Below, piece by piece: positions 1,957-19,126 of a DNA stretch of 64,000 bases. Position 1 is the first letter of the stretch, and every line of letters begins with the position of its first letter. This stretch comes from an uncultured Actinomycetes bacterium (GTDB taxonomy: Bacteria; Actinomycetota; Acidimicrobiia; IMCC26256; DASPTH01): assembly GCA_963719245.1 (NCBI GenBank), contig CAVRBG010000005.1:38614-102613 (forward strand), in the 5' to 3' direction. The position numbers and the translations under genes were made by a program. Under the pieces are notes generated by a model. The model saw only the letters and a list, made by a program, of their open reading frames with translations, had not been told where the DNA came from and did not search any database.

Positions 1957-2963
1957 TGGCACTCCCCTTGCGTCAACAGGTCCGCGTCGCGTCCTACGTC
2001 GCGAAGCAGAAGCTCGCGAGGCGCAAGCAATTCCCGCTGATCGTCGAGCTCGAGCCGCTCTTCGCGTGCAACCTCGAGTGCGCGGGCTGCGGCAAGATCC
2101 AGTTCCCCACGGAGATCCTCCGGCGCCGGGTCAGCGTGGAGGATGCGGTCGCGGCGATCGAGGAGTGCGGTGCACCGATGGTGTCCATCGCGGGCGGTGA
2201 GCCGCTGCTGCATCCCGACATCGAGGAGATGGTGCAGGCGTTCGTCGACCGGAAGCGGTTCGTGTACCTCTGCACCAACGGCGTGCTCATGCGGCGGAAG
2301 CTCGACCGCTTCCAGCCGTCGCCCTACTTCAGCTGGGTCGTCCACATCGACGGGCTGCGCGAGCGCCACGACACGTCGGTGTGCCGATCCGGGGTGTTCG
2401 ACGAGGCGGTCAGCGCGATCCGCGAGGCGAAGGAACAGGGGTTCCGCGTCACCACCAACTCGACCTTCTTCAACACCGACTCCCCCGGCACCGTGCGCGA
2501 GACCCTCGACTTCCTGAACGACGACCTCGACGTCGACGCGATGATGATCTCCCCCGGCTACGCGTACGAGAAGGCACCCGACCAGGAGCACTTCCTGGGT
2601 GTCGAGGAGACGCGGCGGCTGTTCCGCAACGCGTTCGCCGGCGACCGTCGACGCCGCTGGCGGCTCAACCACAGTCCCCTCTTCCTCGACTTCCTCGAAG
2701 GCAAGGTGGAGTACGACTGCACCGCGTGGGCGATCCCGAGCTACTCGGTGTTCGGTTGGCAACGCCCCTGCTACCTGATGGCCGACGGCTACACCGCCAC
2801 CTACCGCGAGCTGATCGAGACCACCGACTGGGACCGCTACGGCCGCGGGCGCGACGAACGGTGCGCCAACTGCATGGCGCACTGCGGCTACGAACCGACG
2901 GCGGTGTTCGCGACGATGGGTTCGCTGCGCGAGTCGCTGCGGGCCGCGGCGTCGACCCGCTGA
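1956..2963 (+). CDS. hpnH: adenosyl-hopene transferase (radical SAM)
   Basis: LEPLFACNLECAGCGKI (CxxxCxxC), GGEPLLH, C-terminal CANCMAHCGYEPT; located in hopanoid operon. Confidence 0.95.
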   Translation: MALPLRQQVRVASYVAKQKLARRKQFPLIVELEPLFACNLECAGCGKIQFPTEILRRRVSVEDAVAAIEECGAPMVSIAGGEPLLHPDIEEMVQAFVDRKRFVYLCTNGVLMRRKLDRFQPSPYFSWVVHIDGLRERHDTSVCRSGVFDEAVSAIREAKEQGFRVTTNSTFFNTDSPGTVRETLDFLNDDLDVDAMMISPGYAYEKAPDQEHFLGVEETRRLFRNAFAGDRRRRWRLNHSPLFLDFLEGKVEYDCTAWAIPSYSVFGWQRPCYLMADGYTATYRELIETTDWDRYGRGRDERCANCMAHCGYEPTAVFATMGSLRESLRAAASTR

Positions 2964-9786: not shown

Positions 9787-11040
9787 TCAGCCGATGCCGT
9801 ACAGGGCGATGGCGCTCTCCGACGTGATCTCCCGCTTCTGCTCGAAGGTCAGGCCGTCGAGCGCCTCCGCCAGCTCCTCGGTGACACCGGGGAACTTCGC
9901 GTCGGGGTGCGGGTAGTCGCTGGCCCAGATGATGCGTTCGGCCCCGACCAGCGGCGAGTCCGCCGTGGTGCGCAGCATCGCCTCGTCGGGGTCGAAGCTG
10001 ATCCAGCACTGGCGTCGCATGTACTCCGACGGCAGGAGCGAGAGATCGCTCACCTCCCACTGGAACTTCCGGCAGTGGTGGTCGAGGCGCTCGAGCCACG
10101 GGACCAGCCAGCCGCCGTTCGCCTCCAGGAAGATGAACTTCGCCTCCGGGAACCGCTCGCAGACGCCGCCCGCGAGCAGGTAGGCGATGCAGCTCATCAC
10201 GTCGACCGGGTTCGCGATCGCCTGCGTGAACAGCGTGCTCGGCCGTTGCTCCGGGTGGGCCACCTGCTCGTCGCGATCGACCATCCGGTTCGGGTCGAAG
10301 CCGTCGACGTAGGCGCCGTCGGGCCTACGGGGACGCGCCAGGCGGAGGCCGACGCACGCGCCGGGCAGGTCCGGGGCGAGGAACGGGTGCAGGGCGATCG
10401 GGAGGCCGGTATCGGCGGCCGCCTGCCAGATGGGGTCGTAGACGGGGTCGTTGAACGGTCGCCAGTCCACTGCCGGGTTCGGGCGCATGAACACCGACAC
10501 CATGCCCGGCAGCTCGGCGACCCGCCGGATCTCCGCCGCCACCCGCGCCACGTCGTCGGGCTCGTGCATCGGCGGCACCGCGCCGGCGCCGAACAGACGA
10601 CCCTCCCCTTCCTGGACGTGGTCGGAGCACCAGTCGTTGTACGCGCGCGCTTGCGCTTCGGCGAAGTCGATGTCGGTCTCGCTCTGGAGCCCGAGCAGCA
10701 TGGTCGGGTACAGCACCGCGAGGTCGATGTGGTCCTGGTCCATGTCCTGGAGCCGGGCCTTGGCGTTCCAGGCCGCGGGACGCGTCTCGGTGTAGCGCAT
10801 CTCACCGCGGAACGCACGCGCGCGGTCCTCGTCGCTCGCACCCGCGACCCCCGCCGCCGACATGGTGTTGGCGGGCGTGCGGTGGCCGTTGTAGAGGAGC
10901 CATTCCTCGCCCGCCTCGTCCGTCTCCACGTGCCAGATCCGGTCGCGGTACTCAGCGGACGCGTATTCGGGCATTGCCGTCGGATGCTCGAGGATGTGGC
11001 CGTCGGAGTCGATGTAGCGGAGTCCCTCGTCGGTCGCCAT
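9787..11040 (-). CDS. amidohydrolase_2 family metallo-hydrolase/decarboxylase
   Basis: IDSDGHILE, AVLYPT, LEANGGW, WASDYPHPD; AAAGGA RBS before ATG at 11040. Confidence 0.92.
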   Translation of the reverse strand: MATDEGLRYIDSDGHILEHPTAMPEYASAEYRDRIWHVETDEAGEEWLLYNGHRTPANTMSAAGVAGASDEDRARAFRGEMRYTETRPAAWNAKARLQDMDQDHIDLAVLYPTMLLGLQSETDIDFAEAQARAYNDWCSDHVQEGEGRLFGAGAVPPMHEPDDVARVAAEIRRVAELPGMVSVFMRPNPAVDWRPFNDPVYDPIWQAAADTGLPIALHPFLAPDLPGACVGLRLARPRRPDGAYVDGFDPNRMVDRDEQVAHPEQRPSTLFTQAIANPVDVMSCIAYLLAGGVCERFPEAKFIFLEANGGWLVPWLERLDHHCRKFQWEVSDLSLLPSEYMRRQCWISFDPDEAMLRTTADSPLVGAERIIWASDYPHPDAKFPGVTEELAEALDGLTFEQKREITSESAIALYGIG

Positions 11041-11148
11041 CACCGTTCCTTTCGCTCCAGGTCCACCGATGCTCGCGCGGGGGCCACCAGCCCGCAACGT
11101 GGACGCGTCTGGCGCCCGGGCGTGCACCCCGGCAACAGTGACCGCCGA

Positions 11149-12438
11149 ATGGCCGTCGTCCGATCGCGGGTCCCGCGCTCGATCCTCGTGATGCGCCACC
11201 GCGACTTCGCGCTGGTCCAGGTGGGCAACGGTGTGTCGCAGCTCGGGACGTGGGGCCAGTACGTCGCGCTGGGTTGGGCCATCCGGCAGCTGAGCGCGTG
11301 GCCGTTCGCGGTCGCGCTCAGCCTGGTCGCCCAGTTCCTGCCGTTCCTGGTGCTCGCGCCCTTCGGTGGCGCGCTCGCCGACCGCGTGAGCCGGCGCACG
11401 GTGGTGGTGGTCGGCAACATCGTCGCGGTCGTGCCGTCGGTCGCGCTCGGCCTGCTCGTCGCCACGGGAAGCCAGACCATTCCACTGCTGCTCCTGCTCG
11501 CCGCAGCCGGCGGCGTCGCGACCGCGCTGAGCCAGCCGGCGATGAGCGCGGTCGTCGGCGAGATCGTGCCCGCCGCCGAGCTCCCCGAGGCGGTGGCGTC
11601 GGTGAGCGTGATGACCAACCTGACGCGGGTGGCCGGCCCGTCGCTCGCCGCGCTGGTGATCAGCGCGTGGGGTCTCCAGTGGGCGTTCTACCTGAACGCG
11701 GTGAGCTTCCTCGCGGTGGTGATCGCGTGGGCCTTCGTGCGCGCCGACACCCGCCGTCACTCGACCCACGAGCGGCTCCGGACCCAACTCGCGCTCGGCC
11801 TGCGCTTCGCGCGTCGTGACGACCAGATCGGCTTCTTGCTGCTGGTCACGTTCGTGACGACGTTCGTCGTGTACCACGCCGCGCTGCTCCCGGTCATCGT
11901 GACCGACCTCCTCCACGATGGCTCCTCCGGGTACGCATTGCTCACGACCGCCACCGGCGTCGGTGCGATCGCGGGGGCGCTCGTCGCCGGGGAGTTCGTG
12001 ACCGACCAGCGGCGTCGGTTCGCGATCGCGGCGTCGATCGGTTTCATCGCGGCGATGTATCTGGTGATCAGCACGTCGAGGGTCCTGGTCGTGACTGCTC
12101 TGGCACTCGTCGGCTACGGCTTCGCCTTCTTCTCGTTGAGCACGGTCGTCCAGGGCCTGCTGATCGCGGTGTCACCCGATGCCTTCCGGGGCCGGGTCAT
12201 GGGCCTGTACACCATGCTCACCGCGGGCGGCGTGCCCATCGCCGCGCTCATCGGCGGCACGATCGGTTCGGTGTTCGGGCCGGGCGAGGCGGTGGCCTTC
12301 GCGGCCGCGGTCATGCTCGTCTTCCTGGGATGGATCCTCGCCGGCCGACGGCTCCGGGTCGTGCGCTTCGACATCAGCGCGCAGGACCACGACGACCCGT
12401 CGTTCACGGCCGCGCGGGAGCGCGGCACCGTGGCCTAA
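11149..12438 (+). CDS. MFS transporter
   Basis: About 12 hydrophobic segments, GGALADRVSRR motif A, PDAFRGRVMG. Confidence 0.9.
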   Translation: MAVVRSRVPRSILVMRHRDFALVQVGNGVSQLGTWGQYVALGWAIRQLSAWPFAVALSLVAQFLPFLVLAPFGGALADRVSRRTVVVVGNIVAVVPSVALGLLVATGSQTIPLLLLLAAAGGVATALSQPAMSAVVGEIVPAAELPEAVASVSVMTNLTRVAGPSLAALVISAWGLQWAFYLNAVSFLAVVIAWAFVRADTRRHSTHERLRTQLALGLRFARRDDQIGFLLLVTFVTTFVVYHAALLPVIVTDLLHDGSSGYALLTTATGVGAIAGALVAGEFVTDQRRRFAIAASIGFIAAMYLVISTSRVLVVTALALVGYGFAFFSLSTVVQGLLIAVSPDAFRGRVMGLYTMLTAGGVPIAALIGGTIGSVFGPGEAVAFAAAVMLVFLGWILAGRRLRVVRFDISAQDHDDPSFTAARERGTVA

Positions 12439-12490
12439 GCGACACCCGGTGCTTGACAGCTCCTCGCCGCCTCCAGGAGGCTCCGCGCCG

Positions 12491-13420
12491 ATGAAGTTCT
12501 CCACCGGGCTCCCGGGCCTCAACCGTTATCCGCCGATCACGTGCGAGTGGGAAGCGTCGTTGCGCGCGCAGGACTTCCAGCGGGTGGCCCGCACCGCTGA
12601 CGACCTCGGCTTCGACTCCATCGCCATCCCCGAGCACATCGTGATCCCGGCCGACATGATCGATCTGATGGGGCCGTTCTGGTCGCACGCCATGACCGCG
12701 ATGGCCTTCGTCGCCGGCGCCACGACGCGCCTCGTCGTCGATTCGGCCGTGATCGTGATGCCGTACCACGACCCCGTCGTGTTCGCGAAGGCGGTCTCGA
12801 CGCTCGATCTCCTGTCCGGCGGTCGGGTTCGCATCTCCATCGGCGTCGGACATGCGGAACGCGAGTTCGAGGTGCTGCGCGCCCCGTTCCACGAACGTGG
12901 CCGCATGACCGACGAGTACCTCGCGGCGATGATCGAGCTCTGGACCAGCGACGAGCCGGCGTACCACGGCACCTACGTCGACTTCGACGGCGTGGCGTTC
13001 GCGCCGAAGCCCGTCCAGCAGCCCCACCCGCCGATCTGGGTGGGCGGCAACTCGCGAGCGGCGATGCGTCGCGCCGCGCGCCACGACGGCTGGTACCCGT
13101 GGCTCATCACCGCCGAGCAGCTGCCCGAGTGCCTGGCGTACCTCCGTGCGCTGCCGGAGTTCGAGGCCCGCACCCGTCCGTTCGACGTGGCGATGCCGCT
13201 GACGAGGCTCGCGGTGTCCGAGGATCACCGGCCCCTCGACGACGACCTCGGACGGGCACCCGTGCTGCAGGGGAAGCAGGCGACGATCGACGCCATCGGT
13301 GCGCTCCGGGACATCGGCGTCACGTGGACCTCGGTGCCTCCACCGCCGACGCGCTCGCTGACCGAGTACCTCGAGAGCCTGCAGTGGACGGCGGAGGAGA
13401 TCTTCCCCGCGTTCCGCTGA
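12491..13420 (+). CDS. LLM-class (probably F420-dependent) oxidoreductase
   Basis: GFDSIAIPEH, TLDLLSGGRV, PKPVQQPHPPIWVGGNS; GGAGG RBS. Confidence 0.9.
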   Translation: MKFSTGLPGLNRYPPITCEWEASLRAQDFQRVARTADDLGFDSIAIPEHIVIPADMIDLMGPFWSHAMTAMAFVAGATTRLVVDSAVIVMPYHDPVVFAKAVSTLDLLSGGRVRISIGVGHAEREFEVLRAPFHERGRMTDEYLAAMIELWTSDEPAYHGTYVDFDGVAFAPKPVQQPHPPIWVGGNSRAAMRRAARHDGWYPWLITAEQLPECLAYLRALPEFEARTRPFDVAMPLTRLAVSEDHRPLDDDLGRAPVLQGKQATIDAIGALRDIGVTWTSVPPPPTRSLTEYLESLQWTAEEIFPAFR

Positions 13421-13426
13421 GGGCGA

Positions 13427-13942
13427 TCAGCCCACCGGCTGGCGCGCCTTCACCATCAGCGCGCGGACCTCGGCCACCGCCGCGCCCACCTGCTCGGGTT
13501 GGCCGGCCACCTGGTCGGCCAGGTCGCCGACGCCGCAGTGGCGCAGCATGTCCGGGAGGTGGTGCTCGACGCATCCGAGCGAGAACTCGACCGGGTCGCC
13601 GACCGCCAGCTCGTCGATGCGCACGACCGTGTTCACGACCGCCTCCTGGTCGATGTAGTGGTAGTGCGGCTCGTTCTCGAAGCAGTCGAAGCGCAGGTGC
13701 TCGAGCCCGTCGGCGGTGCCGCACACGTGGAGCGTGGCCCCGAAGTCGTCGAACGCGAGGTCGGCCGCGATCGCGCCCTGGTAGGTGTCCTGGATGATCT
13801 CGTTGGTGAGGACGCGGGACTCCACGACCAGCTGCACCGCTCCCGCGTCGACGGGGATGCAGTGCTCCTCGACCATGGGGATGGGCAACCGGTCGAAGCG
13901 GTTGCCGCGGCGGTACGGGGAATCCTGACGGTCGATCGCCAT
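13427..13942 (-). CDS. hypothetical protein with LRFDxFxxxPHYHY motif (paralog of 4730-5134)
   Basis: GATLHV...EHLRFDCFENEPHYHY; GAGGAG RBS. Confidence 0.8.
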   Translation of the reverse strand: MAIDRQDSPYRRGNRFDRLPIPMVEEHCIPVDAGAVQLVVESRVLTNEIIQDTYQGAIAADLAFDDFGATLHVCGTADGLEHLRFDCFENEPHYHYIDQEAVVNTVVRIDELAVGDPVEFSLGCVEHHLPDMLRHCGVGDLADQVAGQPEQVGAAVAEVRALMVKARQPVG

Positions 13943-14033
13943 CGCTCAGCTCCTCTGCACGGGCCTACCCACGCGACGGTAGCGCCGATGGTCGACGGTC
14001 CGGACGCCCCGCACCGTCTGCGAGACTCGGTGC

Positions 14034-14468
14034 ATGGACGAGCTCGACCGGGCGCTGGCTGCGGCCCAGGAACGCTACGAGGCCGCCCTTCGCGCCGAGG
14101 TGGACGAGAAGCTGCGAGAGCAGGAGGCGATGGCCTGGTTCGGGCAGTGGGCGCACCAGGTCGGGATGCCCACCCTCAGCCGTCTGGCCGAACGACTGCT
14201 CGCGGCCGGGCACAAGGCCGTCGTGTCCACCGCGCAGAGCGAGACCGGCGAGGTCGTCACCGATCTCGTGTTCACGTTCACGCAGCAGAACGGCCCCGGC
14301 CAGTGCACCATCGAGTTCCGGCGGGGTCAGGACAGATCCGTCGCCGCGTTCTTCGCGGTGAACGGGACCCAGGGCGCGGGCGGCCGGGTGGAACCTCCTG
14401 ACGCCGCGACGGTCGATCGCCTCGTCCAGGGGTACATCATCGAGGCCCTCGAGGGGCCGCAGTGGTGA
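14034..14468 (+). CDS. hypothetical protein
   Basis: 144-aa ORF with protein-like composition, filling the gap between flanking genes. Confidence 0.6.
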   Translation: MDELDRALAAAQERYEAALRAEVDEKLREQEAMAWFGQWAHQVGMPTLSRLAERLLAAGHKAVVSTAQSETGEVVTDLVFTFTQQNGPGQCTIEFRRGQDRSVAAFFAVNGTQGAGGRVEPPDAATVDRLVQGYIIEALEGPQW

Positions 14469-14489
14469 GCGGTCGCGTGGTCGCGTGAC

Positions 14490-15551
14490 TCACATGTCGA
14501 GCGGCGGATAGAAGGTCTCGGCGCCGACGGCCTCGACCTCGCTGAGCATGTCGCGTTCGTAGACCTCACCCCAGTCCGGGTCGACCAGGCTCAAGGCCTC
14601 CCGGTGGTAGCTCCAGTTCGTCGGATCCAGGCGGTGCGCCTCCTGGAAGTGCGGCACCGCATCGCGCGGGAAGCCGGCCCGGTGCAGGTGCTGCGCGAGC
14701 TCGAAGTGTGCGGCGGCGAGCCCGAACTCGCGCGGGCGCGGCCGTGACCGTTCGATGACCTCCGCCTCCGACAGCACGTACCGGCTGTCGCGGCCGTGCG
14801 CGGCCCAGTCGCGCACCGCAGCGGGGTACCGCTCGGTGTCGTGCATGTTGGTCGTCATCGTCTCGATGATCCGGCGCTGGCGCTCCGGCAGCTGCGCGAT
14901 GAACGACGACTGCTGCGGATCGGCGTCGCGCGACTGCCGCGGCGCGAAGGCGAGCTCGGCCGGGCGGACGATGGTGCCGTCCTCGTCGATCCAGATCCCG
15001 AAGGGCACGTTGGTGATGCCGAACAAGCCGACCATCAGGTGCGCGGGATCGACCAACGACGGATGCGTCGGATGCGCAGCTTCGTGGAAGGGACGGGCGG
15101 CGTCGACGTCAGTGTCGAGCGCGACCGTCACGATCTCGACGCCCGCCGGCGAGACCTCCTCGTGCAGCGCCTGCCACCCGGGCAGGTCGAAGCGGCATCC
15201 TCACCACGACGCCCACGCCATGAGCACGACCTTGCGGCCGCGCACGCGTGCGAGGTCGAACGCGCCACCGTCGAAGTCCTGGAGGACGAGCTCGGGCATC
15301 TGCGTGCTGTCGAGCACGCTACGATTGCCCGACCGTGGTCCCAGCGCCCAGAGCCCGTGGGCCTCGTCGTGCGCGAGCGGCATGCCGAGCCGGTGGGCCA
15401 CGACGGCCACGTCGATGCGACCCTCCGGATCCCGAGCGATCGGCGGCAGCGGTACGCACACCTCGTCCTGGCACGCGCCCTCGGGTTTGATCTCCCAGCC
15501 GCTGATCCGCTCGAACTCCGTGGGGGTGAGGTCGAGCCGGTCGAACGTCAT
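14490..15551 (-). CDS. thioredoxin-fold (ResA/TlpA-like) selenoprotein, WASW-U-GC motif, Sec at codon 117
   Basis: ORFs 15201-15551 and 14490-15131 are in the same frame, separated by a single TGA (15201-15203). Read-through gives GRKVVLMAWASW*GCRFDLPGWQALHEE...VEIVTVALD, a continuous redoxin fold of 353 aa. Confidence 0.88.
15170..15186 (-). promoter_or_regulatory. putative bacterial SECIS hairpin
   Basis: mRNA reads UGA-14 nt-CCUGCC-CGGGU-GGCAGG: a perfect 6-bp stem with a G-containing apical loop just 3' of the UGA. Confidence 0.7.
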
Positions 15552-15649
15552 GGCAAACGGTACCGCCGTCCGCCGGCGCCGCTCGCCTGGCGTGCTCCCG
15601 CCCCCAGAACGTAGAATTGCACGGAGTCCAAATCGACGAGGGGGTTGTC

Positions 15650-16891
15650 GTGACCAGCACGGAGTACATCCAGATCACCCACCGGGAACTGCCGTACACC
15701 ACGTTCGACGCCGACAACCACCTCTACGAGAACCGTGACGCGCTCACCAAGTTCCTCCCGCGCGGGTACGAGGGCGTCATCAAGTACGTCGACATCAACG
15801 GCCGCACCAAGCTCGCCATCCGCGACAAGATCTCCGACTACATCCCCAACCCGACGTTCGGGAAGGTCGCGGTGCCGGGTGGCGCCGGCTACGACGTGAC
15901 GAAGGGCGGCAAGGGCTTCGGCGCCGCGACCGGGTTCGGGAAGATGGTCGCGATGCCGAGCCTCGACGCGTTCTTCGACCCGGAGCCGCGCCTCGAGCTC
16001 ATGAAGGAGATGGGCATCGACCGCACACTCCTGTGGCCGACGCTCGCGAGCGCGCTCGAGGAGCGCATGGCCGACGACCCCGACACCGTGTGCGTGGTGA
16101 TCCACGCGTTGAACGAGTGGCTGCACGAGCACTGGAGCTACGTGTACTCCGACGCCATCTACTCGACGCCGATCATCTCGCTGGCCGTGCTCGACCGCGC
16201 GCTCGAGGAGCTCGAGTACATCCACGAACGGGGCGCCAAGATCTTCCTGATCCGCGTGGCGCCGGTCCCCACGTGGAAGGGCCGCACGTCGTTCGCGCTC
16301 CCCGAGTTCGACCCGTTCTGGGAGCGGGTGCAGGAGCTCGACCTCGTCGTGGGCATGCACTCGGGCGACTCGGGTTACACGCGCTACACCAACGAGTGGG
16401 AGGGTCTCGGCGACCGAGAGATGACGATCACCGCGGGATCGCGGCGCTCGAACCCGGCGTTCCTCGCGCTGTCGTCGGAGAAGGACAACCTCGTCGACGC
16501 GATGGCGTCGATCATCGGCCACGGCCTGGCCACCCGGTTCCCGAAGCTGCGCTTCATGCCGGTCGAGTTCGGCAGCGGCTGGATCCGGCCGTTCTACCGC
16601 AAGCTGCAGCGCACCTACGACGAAGCCCCTGTGCTGTTCGACGAGAACCCGGTCGACGTGTTCACCCGGAGCGTCTGGGTGCACGCCTTCCACGAGCGGG
16701 ACCCCAAGGGCCTCATCGACCTCGGCATCCCGGCCGACCACATCATGTTCGGCTCCGACTTCCCCCACCCCGAGGGCATGGAAGACCCACTCGCCTACTC
16801 GGAGGTCGTCAAGGACCTCCCGCTGGAGGATCAGGCGCTCATCATGGGCGGGGCGCTGGAGCGGGCGATGAAGGTCGGAGCGCACGCCTGA
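15650..16891 (+). CDS. amidohydrolase_2 family protein
   Basis: FDADNHLYE, LLWPTL, MHSGDSGY, MFGSDFPHPEG; TAGAAT -10 box at 15612-15617. Confidence 0.92.
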   Translation: MTSTEYIQITHRELPYTTFDADNHLYENRDALTKFLPRGYEGVIKYVDINGRTKLAIRDKISDYIPNPTFGKVAVPGGAGYDVTKGGKGFGAATGFGKMVAMPSLDAFFDPEPRLELMKEMGIDRTLLWPTLASALEERMADDPDTVCVVIHALNEWLHEHWSYVYSDAIYSTPIISLAVLDRALEELEYIHERGAKIFLIRVAPVPTWKGRTSFALPEFDPFWERVQELDLVVGMHSGDSGYTRYTNEWEGLGDREMTITAGSRRSNPAFLALSSEKDNLVDAMASIIGHGLATRFPKLRFMPVEFGSGWIRPFYRKLQRTYDEAPVLFDENPVDVFTRSVWVHAFHERDPKGLIDLGIPADHIMFGSDFPHPEGMEDPLAYSEVVKDLPLEDQALIMGGALERAMKVGAHA

Positions 16892-16909
16892 ACGCAGAAC
16901 GCGACCCGG

Positions 16910-17242
16910 ATGAGCAACGACGACGAGTTCATCGACGCCGCCCCGACCGACTACCTGGAGCCGGGCGAGACCGCCACGGTCGACGTCGACGGCGTGCCGG
17001 TGACCCTCGCCAACGCGGGCGGGAGCTGGTGCGCGTTCGAGAGCACGTGTCCGCACCAGGCCACGCCGCTGGGCGGAATACCGTTGATGCGGAACGTGCT
17101 GTTGCAATGCCCCGAACACGGATCGATCTTCGACGTGACGACCGGCAAGTGCGTCCTGCCCTCCGAGGACGGCTGGTCCGGCCCGTTGCGTACGTACCGC
17201 ACGCAGGTCGTCGACGACGTGGTGCAGGTCTCGCTGCACTGA
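16910..17242 (+). CDS. Rieske [2Fe-2S] ferredoxin
   Basis: CPHQ...CPEHGSIFDVTTGK (CxH...CxxH), 110 aa. Confidence 0.92.
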   Translation: MSNDDEFIDAAPTDYLEPGETATVDVDGVPVTLANAGGSWCAFESTCPHQATPLGGIPLMRNVLLQCPEHGSIFDVTTGKCVLPSEDGWSGPLRTYRTQVVDDVVQVSLH

Positions 17243-17290
17243 CGTTGAGACCCGCATGACCGAAGGCCCAACGACAAGGACGGCGTCTCC

Positions 17291-18490
17291 GTGACGATCA
17301 CCAACGAGAGCGACATCTACTACGACCCGTTCAACAAGGAGATCGACAAGGATCCGCACCCGTTGTGGAAGCGGATGCGCGACGAGGCGCCGCTCTACCG
17401 CAACGAGAAGTTCGACTTCTACGCGCTGAGCCGCTACGACGACGTCGAGAAGGCCCTCGTCGACTGGGACACCTACCGGTCGGGGAAGGGGTCGACGCTC
17501 GAGACGATCATGGCCGGGTTCGACATCCCGCCGGGACTGATCCTGATGGAGGACCCCCCGATCCACGACCTCCACCGCGGCCTGCTCTCGCGCGTGTTCA
17601 CGCCCAAGGCCATGAACGCGATCGAGCCGAAGGTGCGCGAGTTCTGCGCCCGCACCCTCGACCCGCTGGTCGACGTGGGTCGCTTCGACTTCATCGCCGA
17701 TCTCGGCGCGGTGATGCCGATGCTCACCATCGGCATGCTGCTCGGGATCCCGGAGGAGGACCAGGTGGCGATCCGCGACCGGATCGACGAGGGCCTGCGC
17801 CTCGACGACGACACCGAGGTGCCGGCGGGCGACCTCGCGCTGGCCGGCGCCGAGCTCTTCTCCGACTACATCGAGTGGCGGGCCGAGCACCCGTCCGACG
17901 ACCTCATGACCCAGCTGCTCAACGCCCAGTTCGAGGACGAGACGGGGACGATGCGCAAGCTCGACCGGATGGAGATCCTCACCTACGTGATGCTCCTCGC
18001 CGGCGCCGGGAACGAGACCACCACGCGCCTGATCGGTTGGACCGGCAAGCTGCTCGCCGAGCACCCCGATCAACGGCGCGAGCTCGCGGCCGACCGGTCG
18101 CTGGTGCCCCAGGCGATCGAGGAGGTCCTGCGCTACGAAGCACCGTCGCCGGTGCAGGCCCGGACGGTGAACCGTGATGTCGAGTACTACGGGGAGACGG
18201 TCCGGGAGGGCAGCGTGATGGTGATCCTCAACGGGTCGGGCAACCGCGACGACCGGCACTTCCCGGAGGGCGACTGCTTCGACATCCACCGCTCGATCGA
18301 CCACCACCTGAGCTTCGGCTACGGGCTGCACTTCTGTCTCGGGGCGGCCCTGGCCCGGCTGGAAGGTCGGGTCGCGCTCGACGAGGTGCTGCAGCGCTGG
18401 TCCGACTGGGACGTCGACTGGGACAACGCGAAGCAGGCGCACACCCCGACGGTGCGGGGTTGGGAGCGCCTGCCGGTCGTCACGCGGTAG
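17291..18490 (+). CDS. cytochrome P450
   Basis: AGNETT I-helix, EEVLRY ExxR, heme motif FGYGLHFCLG. Confidence 0.96.
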   Translation: MTITNESDIYYDPFNKEIDKDPHPLWKRMRDEAPLYRNEKFDFYALSRYDDVEKALVDWDTYRSGKGSTLETIMAGFDIPPGLILMEDPPIHDLHRGLLSRVFTPKAMNAIEPKVREFCARTLDPLVDVGRFDFIADLGAVMPMLTIGMLLGIPEEDQVAIRDRIDEGLRLDDDTEVPAGDLALAGAELFSDYIEWRAEHPSDDLMTQLLNAQFEDETGTMRKLDRMEILTYVMLLAGAGNETTTRLIGWTGKLLAEHPDQRRELAADRSLVPQAIEEVLRYEAPSPVQARTVNRDVEYYGETVREGSVMVILNGSGNRDDRHFPEGDCFDIHRSIDHHLSFGYGLHFCLGAALARLEGRVALDEVLQRWSDWDVDWDNAKQAHTPTVRGWERLPVVTR

Positions 18491-18507
18491 GAGCGCCGAC
18501 GCCGGAT

Positions 18508-18534
18508 CCATCCGGATCGGTGCGCAGCTCCGTA
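18508..18534 (+). promoter_or_regulatory. putative autoregulatory ECF (SigK-type) promoter CCATCC-N17-CGTA
   Basis: CCATCC at 18508-18513, CGTA at 18531-18534; the sigma gene GTG lies 7 nt downstream with no RBS (leaderless). Confidence 0.55.
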
Positions 18535-18541
18535 CACCAGC

Positions 18542-19126
18542 GTGGAGCACGACCTGCGCGAGGCGAGCGACGCGGCCTTGGTGGTCGCGATCGCCCGCTT
18601 CCGGCAGGAGGCGCTGGCCGAGGCCTACCGCCGCCACGGTGATGCCGCGTTCGGTCTCGCGGTGCGTGTCGTGCGCGACCGGGCGCTGGCGGAGGAGATC
18701 GTCCAGGAGGTGTTCCTCCGGCTCTGGAACGACCCGGAGCGATTCGATCCGGGAAGAGGCACGCTGCGCGCCTTCATCATGGCGACGGTCCACAGCCGCG
18801 CCATCGACGTGATCCGGGCCGAGTCCGCACGACGGGTGCGCGAGAAGCGCCACGATCGGCTCCATCGCCAGGACGGCTACGACCTCGAGCGCGAGATCGT
18901 CGACCTCACCGTCGCCGAGCAGATCCGGGGTGCGTTGGAGGGCCTGTCCGACGACGAGCGTCGCGCGATCGAGCTCGCGTACTTCGGCGGGCACAGCTAC
19001 CGCGAGGTCGCAACCCTCCTGGAGCAACCGGAGGGCACGGTCAAGAGTCGGATCCGAGTGGGCCTGCGTCGTCTGCGCGACTCACTCGTCGAGGCAGGGA
19101 TCACGTCGGCGTGGACCGAGAGCTGA
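18542..19126 (+). CDS. ECF RNA polymerase sigma factor, SigK-like
   Basis: AEEIVQEVFLRLW, RFDPGRG, LAYFGGHSYREVA...GTVKSRIR. Confidence 0.92.
   Translation: MEHDLREASDAALVVAIARFRQEALAEAYRRHGDAAFGLAVRVVRDRALAEEIVQEVFLRLWNDPERFDPGRGTLRAFIMATVHSRAIDVIRAESARRVREKRHDRLHRQDGYDLEREIVDLTVAEQIRGALEGLSDDERRAIELAYFGGHSYREVATLLEQPEGTVKSRIRVGLRRLRDSLVEAGITSAWTES

Follow-up and report, generated by a model that had tools for sequence, protein, structure and literature searches.

The locus at 14490-15551 (minus strand) of the 64-kb stretch of DNA analysed here (the window, part of contig C5 of source genome G000, which has 16 contigs and is 79.7% complete) raises the question whether it holds two short genes or a single gene for a selenoprotein, in which an in-frame UGA is decoded as selenocysteine (Sec). 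Standard calling of open reading frames (ORFs) splits the region into a 116-aa and a 213-aa piece. An earlier note on this DNA had claimed that the two pieces lie in one frame and are parted by a single TGA, and this layout was confirmed. The frame opens with an ATG at 15551-15549 and runs through 116 codons ending in ...MAWASW; it then meets the TGA at 15201-15203 (TCA on the plus strand), after which 23 further in-frame codons, GCRFDLPGWQALHEEVSPAGVEI, lead to the 213-aa ORF with its GTG at 15131. The sum of 116 + 1 + 23 + 213 gives 353 codons, followed by a terminal TGA stop at 14490-14492, all in a single frame when the internal TGA is translated as U. TGA was also the stop of 6 of the 7 neighbouring ORFs checked, as well as of the selenoprotein gene itself, indicating that the internal TGA is a site-specific event and not the mark of an altered genetic code. 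Given a full-length match of the read-through product to a curated family (NCBIfam NF041054) at E = 2e-139, the single-frame layout is far beyond chance. We take the gene to be a genuine Sec-decoded member of NF041054 with a probability of about 0.93, a figure that excludes the catalytic mechanism.

The match to NF041054 was obtained with Sec read as Cys and reached 464.8 bits against a cut-off of 300, residues 1-353 falling on model positions 1-354. The model is of the equivalog type (WAxxUGC_long, 'ResA-like WAxxUGC motif-containing protein'), and in a six-frame search of the genome the same gene scored 458 bits on it with one TGA. The motif in the family's name is present as W113-A-S-W-U117-G-C119, its Sec coming from the in-frame TGA; the assignment of 15201-15203 to U117 follows the translation with TGA as U, the homologue column and the alignment with ResA. 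When the protein was aligned by HMMER to ResA chains of the PDB, U117 fell on the first (nucleophilic) Cys and C119 (codon 15195-15197, minus strand) on the second Cys of the CxxC motif, with a one-residue gap inside the motif that turns CxxC into U-G-C (ResA 4nmu, E 6.3e-12). This gap indicates that the compressed U-G-C is real. C119, invariant in a 55-sequence alignment, is likely the resolving Cys. The proposal that Sec replaces a catalytic Cys in a shortened motif thus stands, the TGA taking the place of the first Cys of the ResA/TlpA CxxC and one residue being missing between the two chalcogens.

To see what homologues carry at this column, a six-frame search was made in the window genome and 40 relatives (41 genomes), and 219 relatives were further obtained from public species-representative genomes, the best 80 of which were kept. 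These best 80 were mostly Acidimicrobiia and other Actinomycetota metagenome-assembled genomes (MAGs), with Ktedonobacteria, Thermomicrobiales, Dehalococcoidia, Dormiibacterota, Solirubrobacteraceae, Frankiaceae and a few more among the other labels of the relatives. The nearest named relatives, with 81-85% identity, were Acidimicrobiia/Actinomycetes MAGs, in line with the actinobacterial type of genome that had been suggested from the letters. Across all loci, the codon at the Sec column was TGA in 106 of 114 homologue hits, TGC in five and TGT in three, so that the alternation of UGA and Cys looked for in homologues was found; at the motif, Sec forms read W/Y-U-G-C and Cys forms W-C-G-C. One of the Cys forms (L079) scored 536 bits on NF041054, which places the Sec/Cys alternation inside the family proper. 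More distant matches, of about 180-220 bits, mostly had one TGA and sometimes none. A FastTree phylogeny of 103 distinct proteins (at least 280 residues long, one short Cys row being left out) required at least five changes of state for its seven Cys forms, or at least three when only well-supported branches were counted, indicating that Sec and Cys have been exchanged several times. One Cys-form homologue (L055, G008:C8, 1263-1821; SSWCGC) is seemingly frameshifted, with TGA codons downstream, and is either a decaying copy or the product of an assembly indel error.

These data bear directly on the simplest alternative, namely that the TGA is a true stop created by a nonsense mutation, leaving a pseudogene or two genes, with a fragment of 116 aa and possibly a second product of 213 aa from the GTG at 15131. 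Standard ORF calling gives exactly these two ORFs and TGA is the normal stop of the neighbouring genes; however, a TGA at the same column recurs in 106 of the 114 hits in several phyla, and the 236 codons downstream of it are conserved in frame. All 22 of the above-cut-off NF041054 matches in the 41 genomes contained exactly one TGA, and the Cys-form homologues are continuous. Moreover, a split at this point would break the thioredoxin fold at its active site. We consider that such a broken or double gene has almost no chance of being the right explanation, and that a single Sec-decoded gene accounts for the locus.

If the UGA is decoded as Sec, the genome should encode the machinery for it, as the earlier note had implied, and all of its parts were found. 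The source genome contains selA (462.7 bits) with an adjoining selB (280.6 bits), and selD (404.9 bits), all above their cut-offs, together with a gene for tRNA-Sec (65.6 bits, above cut-off) which ARAGORN calls tRNA-SeC with anticodon tca (UCA). In the 41 genomes, selA was detected in 22 of 22 with the TGA form, in none of the seven with the Cys form only (completeness 66-98%), and in three of the 12 without a homologue. Five further genomes, reached through the loci, gave the same picture: selA was present in all three with the Sec form and in neither of the two with an in-family Cys form, one of which is a 4.7-Mb record titled as a chromosome. The selA-bearing Sec-form genomes of other phyla were labelled Ktedonobacterales, Solirubrobacteraceae and Dormiibacterota. 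Combined, selA accompanies the TGA form in 25 of 25 genomes and is found in none of the nine with the Cys form only; the genomes being kin and many of them incomplete, this co-occurrence is to be read as a consistent pattern and not as a statistic.

Two further loci of the source genome may touch on its use of Sec. About 24 kb past the end of the window, at G000:C5:126381-126779 (minus strand), there is a molybdopterin-oxidoreductase match with one in-frame TGA, possibly a formate dehydrogenase that contains Sec. On C4, at G000:C4:151012-152130 (plus strand), a second molybdopterin oxidoreductase was seen at a distance of some 1 kb from the gene for tRNA-Sec.

Immediately downstream of the UGA we identified a hairpin resembling a bacterial selenocysteine insertion sequence (SECIS), CCUGCC-CGGGU-GGCAGG, at 15170-15186 on the minus strand (5' arm 15186-15181, loop 15180-15176, 3' arm 15175-15170). 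It starts 14 nt past the UGA, within codons D122-L-P-G-W-Q127 plus base 1 of codon 128, and has a 6-bp stem, a 5-nt loop, a UGA-to-loop distance of 20 nt and a folding energy of -9.3 kcal/mol for the 17-mer alone. The bacterial SECIS model, as laid out in the Fig. 2 legend of PMC13188914, asks for a loop of 3-9 nt with a G in its first two positions, a stem of 4-16 bp, a UGA-to-loop spacing of 16-37 nt and a minimum free energy of at most -7.5 kcal/mol. The hairpin satisfies these constraints, with G at loop position 2 and another G as the next base. Among 96 distinct Sec-form sequences, all six pairs could form in 91 and five pairs in the other five, while only one of the eight Cys forms (L048) had all six. 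The loop occurred in five variants in the Sec forms (CGGGU in 67, CGUGU in 19, AGGUU in six, GGUCU in three and AGUAU in one), and all five, hence 96 of 96 sequences, carry a G at loop position 1 or 2 that is followed by G or U.

Pairing on the alignment was likewise far from random, as 99.1% of the cells were paired, none of 500 shuffles reached the observed values, and only 23-77% of cells paired when the hairpin was slid to other registers. Compensatory changes were seen at three pairs, for instance G-C to U-A with Leu CUG changed to CUU and Gln CAG to Lys AAG. At the Leu codon of the stem, the third base was G in 94 of 96 Sec forms compared with two of eight Cys forms, with an entropy of 0.18 bit; a conserved Leu codon immediately beyond the stem had 1.10 bit and the Gly codon that follows the UGA 1.67 bit. 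Since synonymous sites of the stem are frozen in Sec forms and loosened in Cys forms, the sequence comparison points to a constraint at the RNA level that eases once Sec gives way to Cys.

Could the ribosome nevertheless pass the UGA with no selenium involved? A near-cognate tRNA would then insert Trp, Cys or Arg, and the hairpin would merely stimulate the event. Stop-codon read-through stimulated by a downstream structure is a known phenomenon, which lends this explanation some general support, and the assignment of Sec is made from sequence and not from a measurement of selenium. On the other hand, the TGA forms go strictly with selA (25/25 genomes, 0/9 for Cys-only genomes), the site is that of the nucleophilic Cys of a redox motif at which homologues alternate between TGA and Cys only, and the G[G/U] loop signature of bacterial SECIS elements is held by every one of the 96 distinct Sec forms. 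Read-through without selenium is therefore very improbable, and decoding as Sec is preferred.

Several observations weigh against decoding as Sec, or limit how far it can be carried. The compared genomes are kin and related MAGs, several of them incomplete (the source genome, at 79.7%, included), and the sequences compared for the hairpin are likewise related to each other. In two genomes (G003 and G012), selA is present only as fragments or split frames. A 77-nt fold downstream of the UGA was no better than shuffles (z = 0.54), the short hairpin alone standing out, and as this hairpin lies over the conserved peptide DLPGWQ, some of its conservation comes from the protein level; the Cys form L048, as mentioned, retains the full six-pair stem. 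An Rfam scan of 14400-15700 (E <= 10) returned no SECIS family, only three chance snoRNA/sRNA hits. Sec incorporation is deduced from sequence and expression is presumed, and the catalytic mechanism together with the roles of C27/C32 and of the helical domain we only infer. Finally, no conserved operon or functional hint was found among 112 loci, the neighbours not being conserved past close relatives. As a separate observation on assembly quality, selA is fragmented or split also in G020, which along with the frameshifted L055 hints at indel errors in some of the MAGs.

Assembled contigs from three soil DNA runs and one RNA-library run were also compared with the window. Several of them span 15201-15203, and among the differences listed none falls there. 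These contigs come from relatives with at most 0.29 of the sampled words, and no listed record has at least 31 letters on both sides of the codon; they neither confirm nor contradict the TGA and are no evidence of transcription.

The source genome was found to hold three TGA-bearing paralogues, on contigs C5 (the window gene), C9 and C1, and only these share the signature of UGA plus hairpin. The C9 copy (L021, G000:C9:296054-297112, plus strand) is 82% identical to the window gene and scored 453.6 bits on NF041054. The C1 copy (L022, G000:C1:265513-266379, minus strand) is about 35% identical, has the motif AFSSWUGC and scored 214.8 bits; it is a member of a sister subfamily below the NF041054 cut-off, which shares the N-terminal CxxxxC and the redoxin domains. 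When the genome was scanned with the pattern TGA-N12-16-CTGCC-N5-GGCAG, five hits were obtained, three of which are the paralogues, and a reversed control pattern gave four; the two remaining hits look like chance given that control and were rejected as further loci of this kind. A weak hit at G000:C1:355433-355855, taken at first as a fourth paralogue candidate with one TGA, was also discarded: it is an ordinary Bcp-type peroxiredoxin, and the TGA is the stop codon that ends the preceding gene. In several relatives, Sec members of different subclades were seen side by side, in tandem or divergent orientation, as in the neighbouring pairs of L041 (421-1476 and 1636-2613, both minus strand), of G003:C9 (43710-44759 and 44787-45896) and of L066 (3001-4083, plus strand, and 2011-2925, minus strand), which suggests old duplications that were kept as pairs.

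The family to which the gene belongs is already known: it has been catalogued since 2008 and is curated at NCBI. In a review, the UGC-containing family is traced to Zhang and Gladyshev (2008; PMC2398784), with 'Prx-like (UGC-containing)' listed, and Peng et al. (2016) is cited for it as well; the main text of the latter (PMC5029168) makes no mention of UGC or TlpA, and a 2022 preprint by Haft contained none of the terms looked for. The 2008 table (PMC2398784) lists 'Prx-like (UGC-containing)' under pfam00578 with the figures 46, 15 and 855, of which, the column headings not being visible, we take 46 as selenoprotein sequences and 855 as Cys homologues. NF041054 and the 'UGC-containing TlpA/Prx-like' family of these selenoproteome lists are very probably one and the same, the two having been matched by description and not sequence by sequence. 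The ResA-like WAxxUGC family named in the earlier note exists as NF041054, and the window gene lies above its cut-off. That no functional characterisation was known to it also agrees with our literature search, in which no functional study of the family was found and the family appeared only as a row in selenoproteome tables; the string 'WAxxUGC' had no occurrence in a full-text search. New here are the presence of three Sec paralogues in one genome, a definition of the SECIS, and an N-terminal domain whose CxxxxC is invariant and for which no solved fold was matched.

To obtain the domain layout, the protein was compared with Pfam and modelled by AlphaFold2 using the 55-sequence alignment, which gave a mean predicted local distance difference test score (pLDDT) of 92.3 and a predicted template modelling score (pTM) of 0.89. 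Only the central redoxin domain was above cut-off in Pfam, with AhpC-TSA at 45.8 bits and Redoxin at 39.7 bits. This TlpA/ResA/DsbE-like thioredoxin-fold domain covers about residues 83-196 (14964-15305, minus strand) and, against solved structures, matched 2f9s in Foldseek (E 4.8e-11, TM-score on the target 0.76) and 3gl3 (DsbE) in VIA (Z 14.2, root-mean-square deviation 2.2, 138 residues). The C-terminal part, about residues 205-353 (14493-14939, minus strand), is a helical domain in the model (helices 212-342) and weakly TPR-like, with TPR_2 at residues 279-312 scoring 22.3 bits, under its 27-bit cut-off.

The N-terminal domain, residues 1-78 (15318-15551, minus strand), contains residues G18, W19, G25, C27 and C32, which are invariant in the alignments, and its motif GWEIKPEGACxxxxCVPL holds both cysteines, whose codons lie at 15471-15473 (C27) and 15456-15458 (C32, both minus strand). 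Modelled alone, the domain reached a pLDDT of 87.4; strands 25-28 and 31-33, adjacent to each other in a beta-hairpin, carry C27 and C32 respectively. No convincing match was found for it among solved structures (the best reaching Z 3.1 in VIA and E 0.98 in Foldseek), and this failed assignment is no proof of a new fold. C27, C32, U117 and C119 are the only four Cys/Sec residues of the protein, and all are invariant in the alignment. By Kyte-Doolittle there is no hydrophobic N-terminus, the highest 19-residue mean being 0.27 over the first 30 windows and 1.46 over the whole protein, so a cytoplasmic location is likely from the sequence.

A working scheme can be proposed from these elements. 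The UGA at 15201-15203 would be decoded as Sec by the genome's own SelA, SelB, SelD and tRNA-Sec, insertion being directed by the 6-bp hairpin with its 5-nt loop in the coding sequence, and translation would end at the second TGA of the gene, which has no such hairpin. Sec117 may then attack an oxidised sulfur or selenium centre, such as a disulfide, in a specific client protein of the cytoplasm, and C119 would resolve the adduct to give a strained Sec-Gly-Cys selenenylsulfide, the overall cycle being isomerase- or reductase-like. We give this cycle of attack and resolution, proposed by analogy with TlpA/ResA chemistry, roughly even odds. C27 and C32 could provide a second redox relay, and recruitment of the client could fall to the helical C-terminal domain. 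For CGC peptides, Table 1 of PMC2672033 gives E°' = -167 mV, close to that of PDI (protein disulfide isomerase), and by this likeness the short U-G-C spacing suggests that the centre is isomerase-like or mildly oxidising and not strongly reducing.

A peroxiredoxin-like function as a thiol or selenol peroxidase, instead of a disulfide reductase or isomerase, has also to be considered. Sec is typical of peroxidases, AhpC-TSA was the best Pfam hit (45.8 bits), and peroxiredoxins and Bcp proteins were among the structural matches with Z of 10-11. The 2008 GOS survey likewise placed a UGC-containing family as 'Prx-like' under pfam00578. The top matches in both sequence and structure, however, were ResA, TlpA and DsbE, and the W-x-x-W-C motif is of the TlpA/ResA type. 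Sec is preceded by L-M-A-W-A-S-W, and neither the signature PxxxTxxC/U, as given in PMC13188914, nor the form PxxxT/SxxC(U) is present; the AhpC-TSA hit reflects the shared fold. A peroxidase thus appears rather unlikely, and a TlpA/ResA-type exchange at U-G-C is favoured over it.

Alternatively, C27, C32, U117 and C119 might jointly bind a metal or cluster, which would make the protein a metal chaperone or sensor and not a redox catalyst. That these are the sole Cys/Sec residues and all invariant would fit such a site, as would the confidently modelled arrangement of the domains (pTM 0.89) and the action of TlpA-type proteins on the copper-site proteins ScoI and CoxB, known from the titles of PDB 4txo and 4txv. 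Against this, no metal-binding family was matched in NCBIfam or Pfam, and in the model C27 and C32 lie on adjacent strands and could be cross-strand neighbours, a geometry that would suit a disulfide better. We regard a metal site as quite unlikely, more so than a peroxidase, and keep to a redox role.

A wider and rather doubtful proposal is that of a cytoplasmic three-domain selenoenzyme, in which the CxxxxC domain would relay electrons to or from Sec-Gly-Cys or would form a four-chalcogen centre with it, while the helical domain selects the client. In the same proposal, retention of the Sec machinery in soil Acidimicrobiia and some Chloroflexota could be owed in large part to this family, a possibility raised by the finding that a genome may hold as many as three Sec paralogues and by the strict co-occurrence of TGA forms with selA.

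The genomic surroundings were examined from 12179 to 19126 of the window, where the selenoprotein gene is set among genes of oxidative metabolism. On one side are a luciferase-like monooxygenase (12179-13420), a DUF7700 protein (13427-13942, minus strand) and an unassigned 144-aa ORF (14034-14468); on the other side follow an Amidohydro_2 protein (15617-16891), a Rieske protein (16910-17242), a cytochrome P450 (17291-18490) and an ECF-type sigma factor (18542-19126). The six genes from the monooxygenase to the P450 each recurred in just 3-8 of the 112 loci searched, mostly in close relatives. Farther away, a 709-aa ORF at 9787-11916 (minus strand) has its Amidohydro_2 domain confined to residues 350-708, and the long stretch ahead of that domain may come from an ORF called too far upstream in this GC-rich DNA, or from a gene that is fused or broken.

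For annotation, recognition of the split gene restores a complete redox enzyme and flags two more paralogues in the genome that are liable to the same mis-call, in a family widespread in uncultured soil Actinomycetota and Chloroflexota. No new kind of system is revealed. The natural Sec-Gly-Cys is a rare redox pair with one-residue spacing, whose chemistry would be of interest to the selenoprotein and thiol-redox field, and it is this centre and the CxxxxC domain that are most worth experiment; with the SECIS defined, the domains mapped and the clean replacement of Sec by Cys linked to loss of selA, the family becomes accessible to experiment.

Compared with known systems, the window gene is a member of NF041054 with the same length (353 residues against 354 model positions), the same motif and the same three-domain span, and no structural difference was seen. 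The published UGC family likewise has one Sec in a UGC motif and a TlpA/Prx-type thioredoxin fold (cd02966 / pfam00578), and its lists come without a description of the N- and C-terminal domains or of a SECIS. The relatives found here are mostly soil-type MAGs, which compares with the statement in the discussion of PMC2398784 that the UGC-containing family is more abundant in non-marine samples. A further likeness is to the CXC (Cys-Gly-Cys) mimic of PDI (Woycechowsky and Raines, 2003, as cited in PMC2672033), in which two redox chalcogens are also parted by one Gly; the Cys forms of the WAxxUGC family are literally W-C-G-C. That work concerns peptides and engineered proteins, and the -167 mV applies to CGC and not to U-G-C, whereas the window protein is natural and Sec-containing. 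With ResA, TlpA and DsbE (CcmG), the window protein shares the thioredoxin fold and the W-x-x-W-C context, its Sec and C119 corresponding to their two cysteines, yet it stays well below the cut-offs of their family models (ResA NF002854, 50.4 vs 170 bits; TlpA NF047696, 40.9 vs 230; DsbE TIGR00385, 21.8 vs 123). Those proteins are extracytoplasmic CxxC enzymes, whereas the window protein lacks a hydrophobic N-terminal segment by Kyte-Doolittle, has a motif one residue shorter with Sec in place of Cys, and carries an extra N-terminal CxxxxC domain and a C-terminal helical domain.

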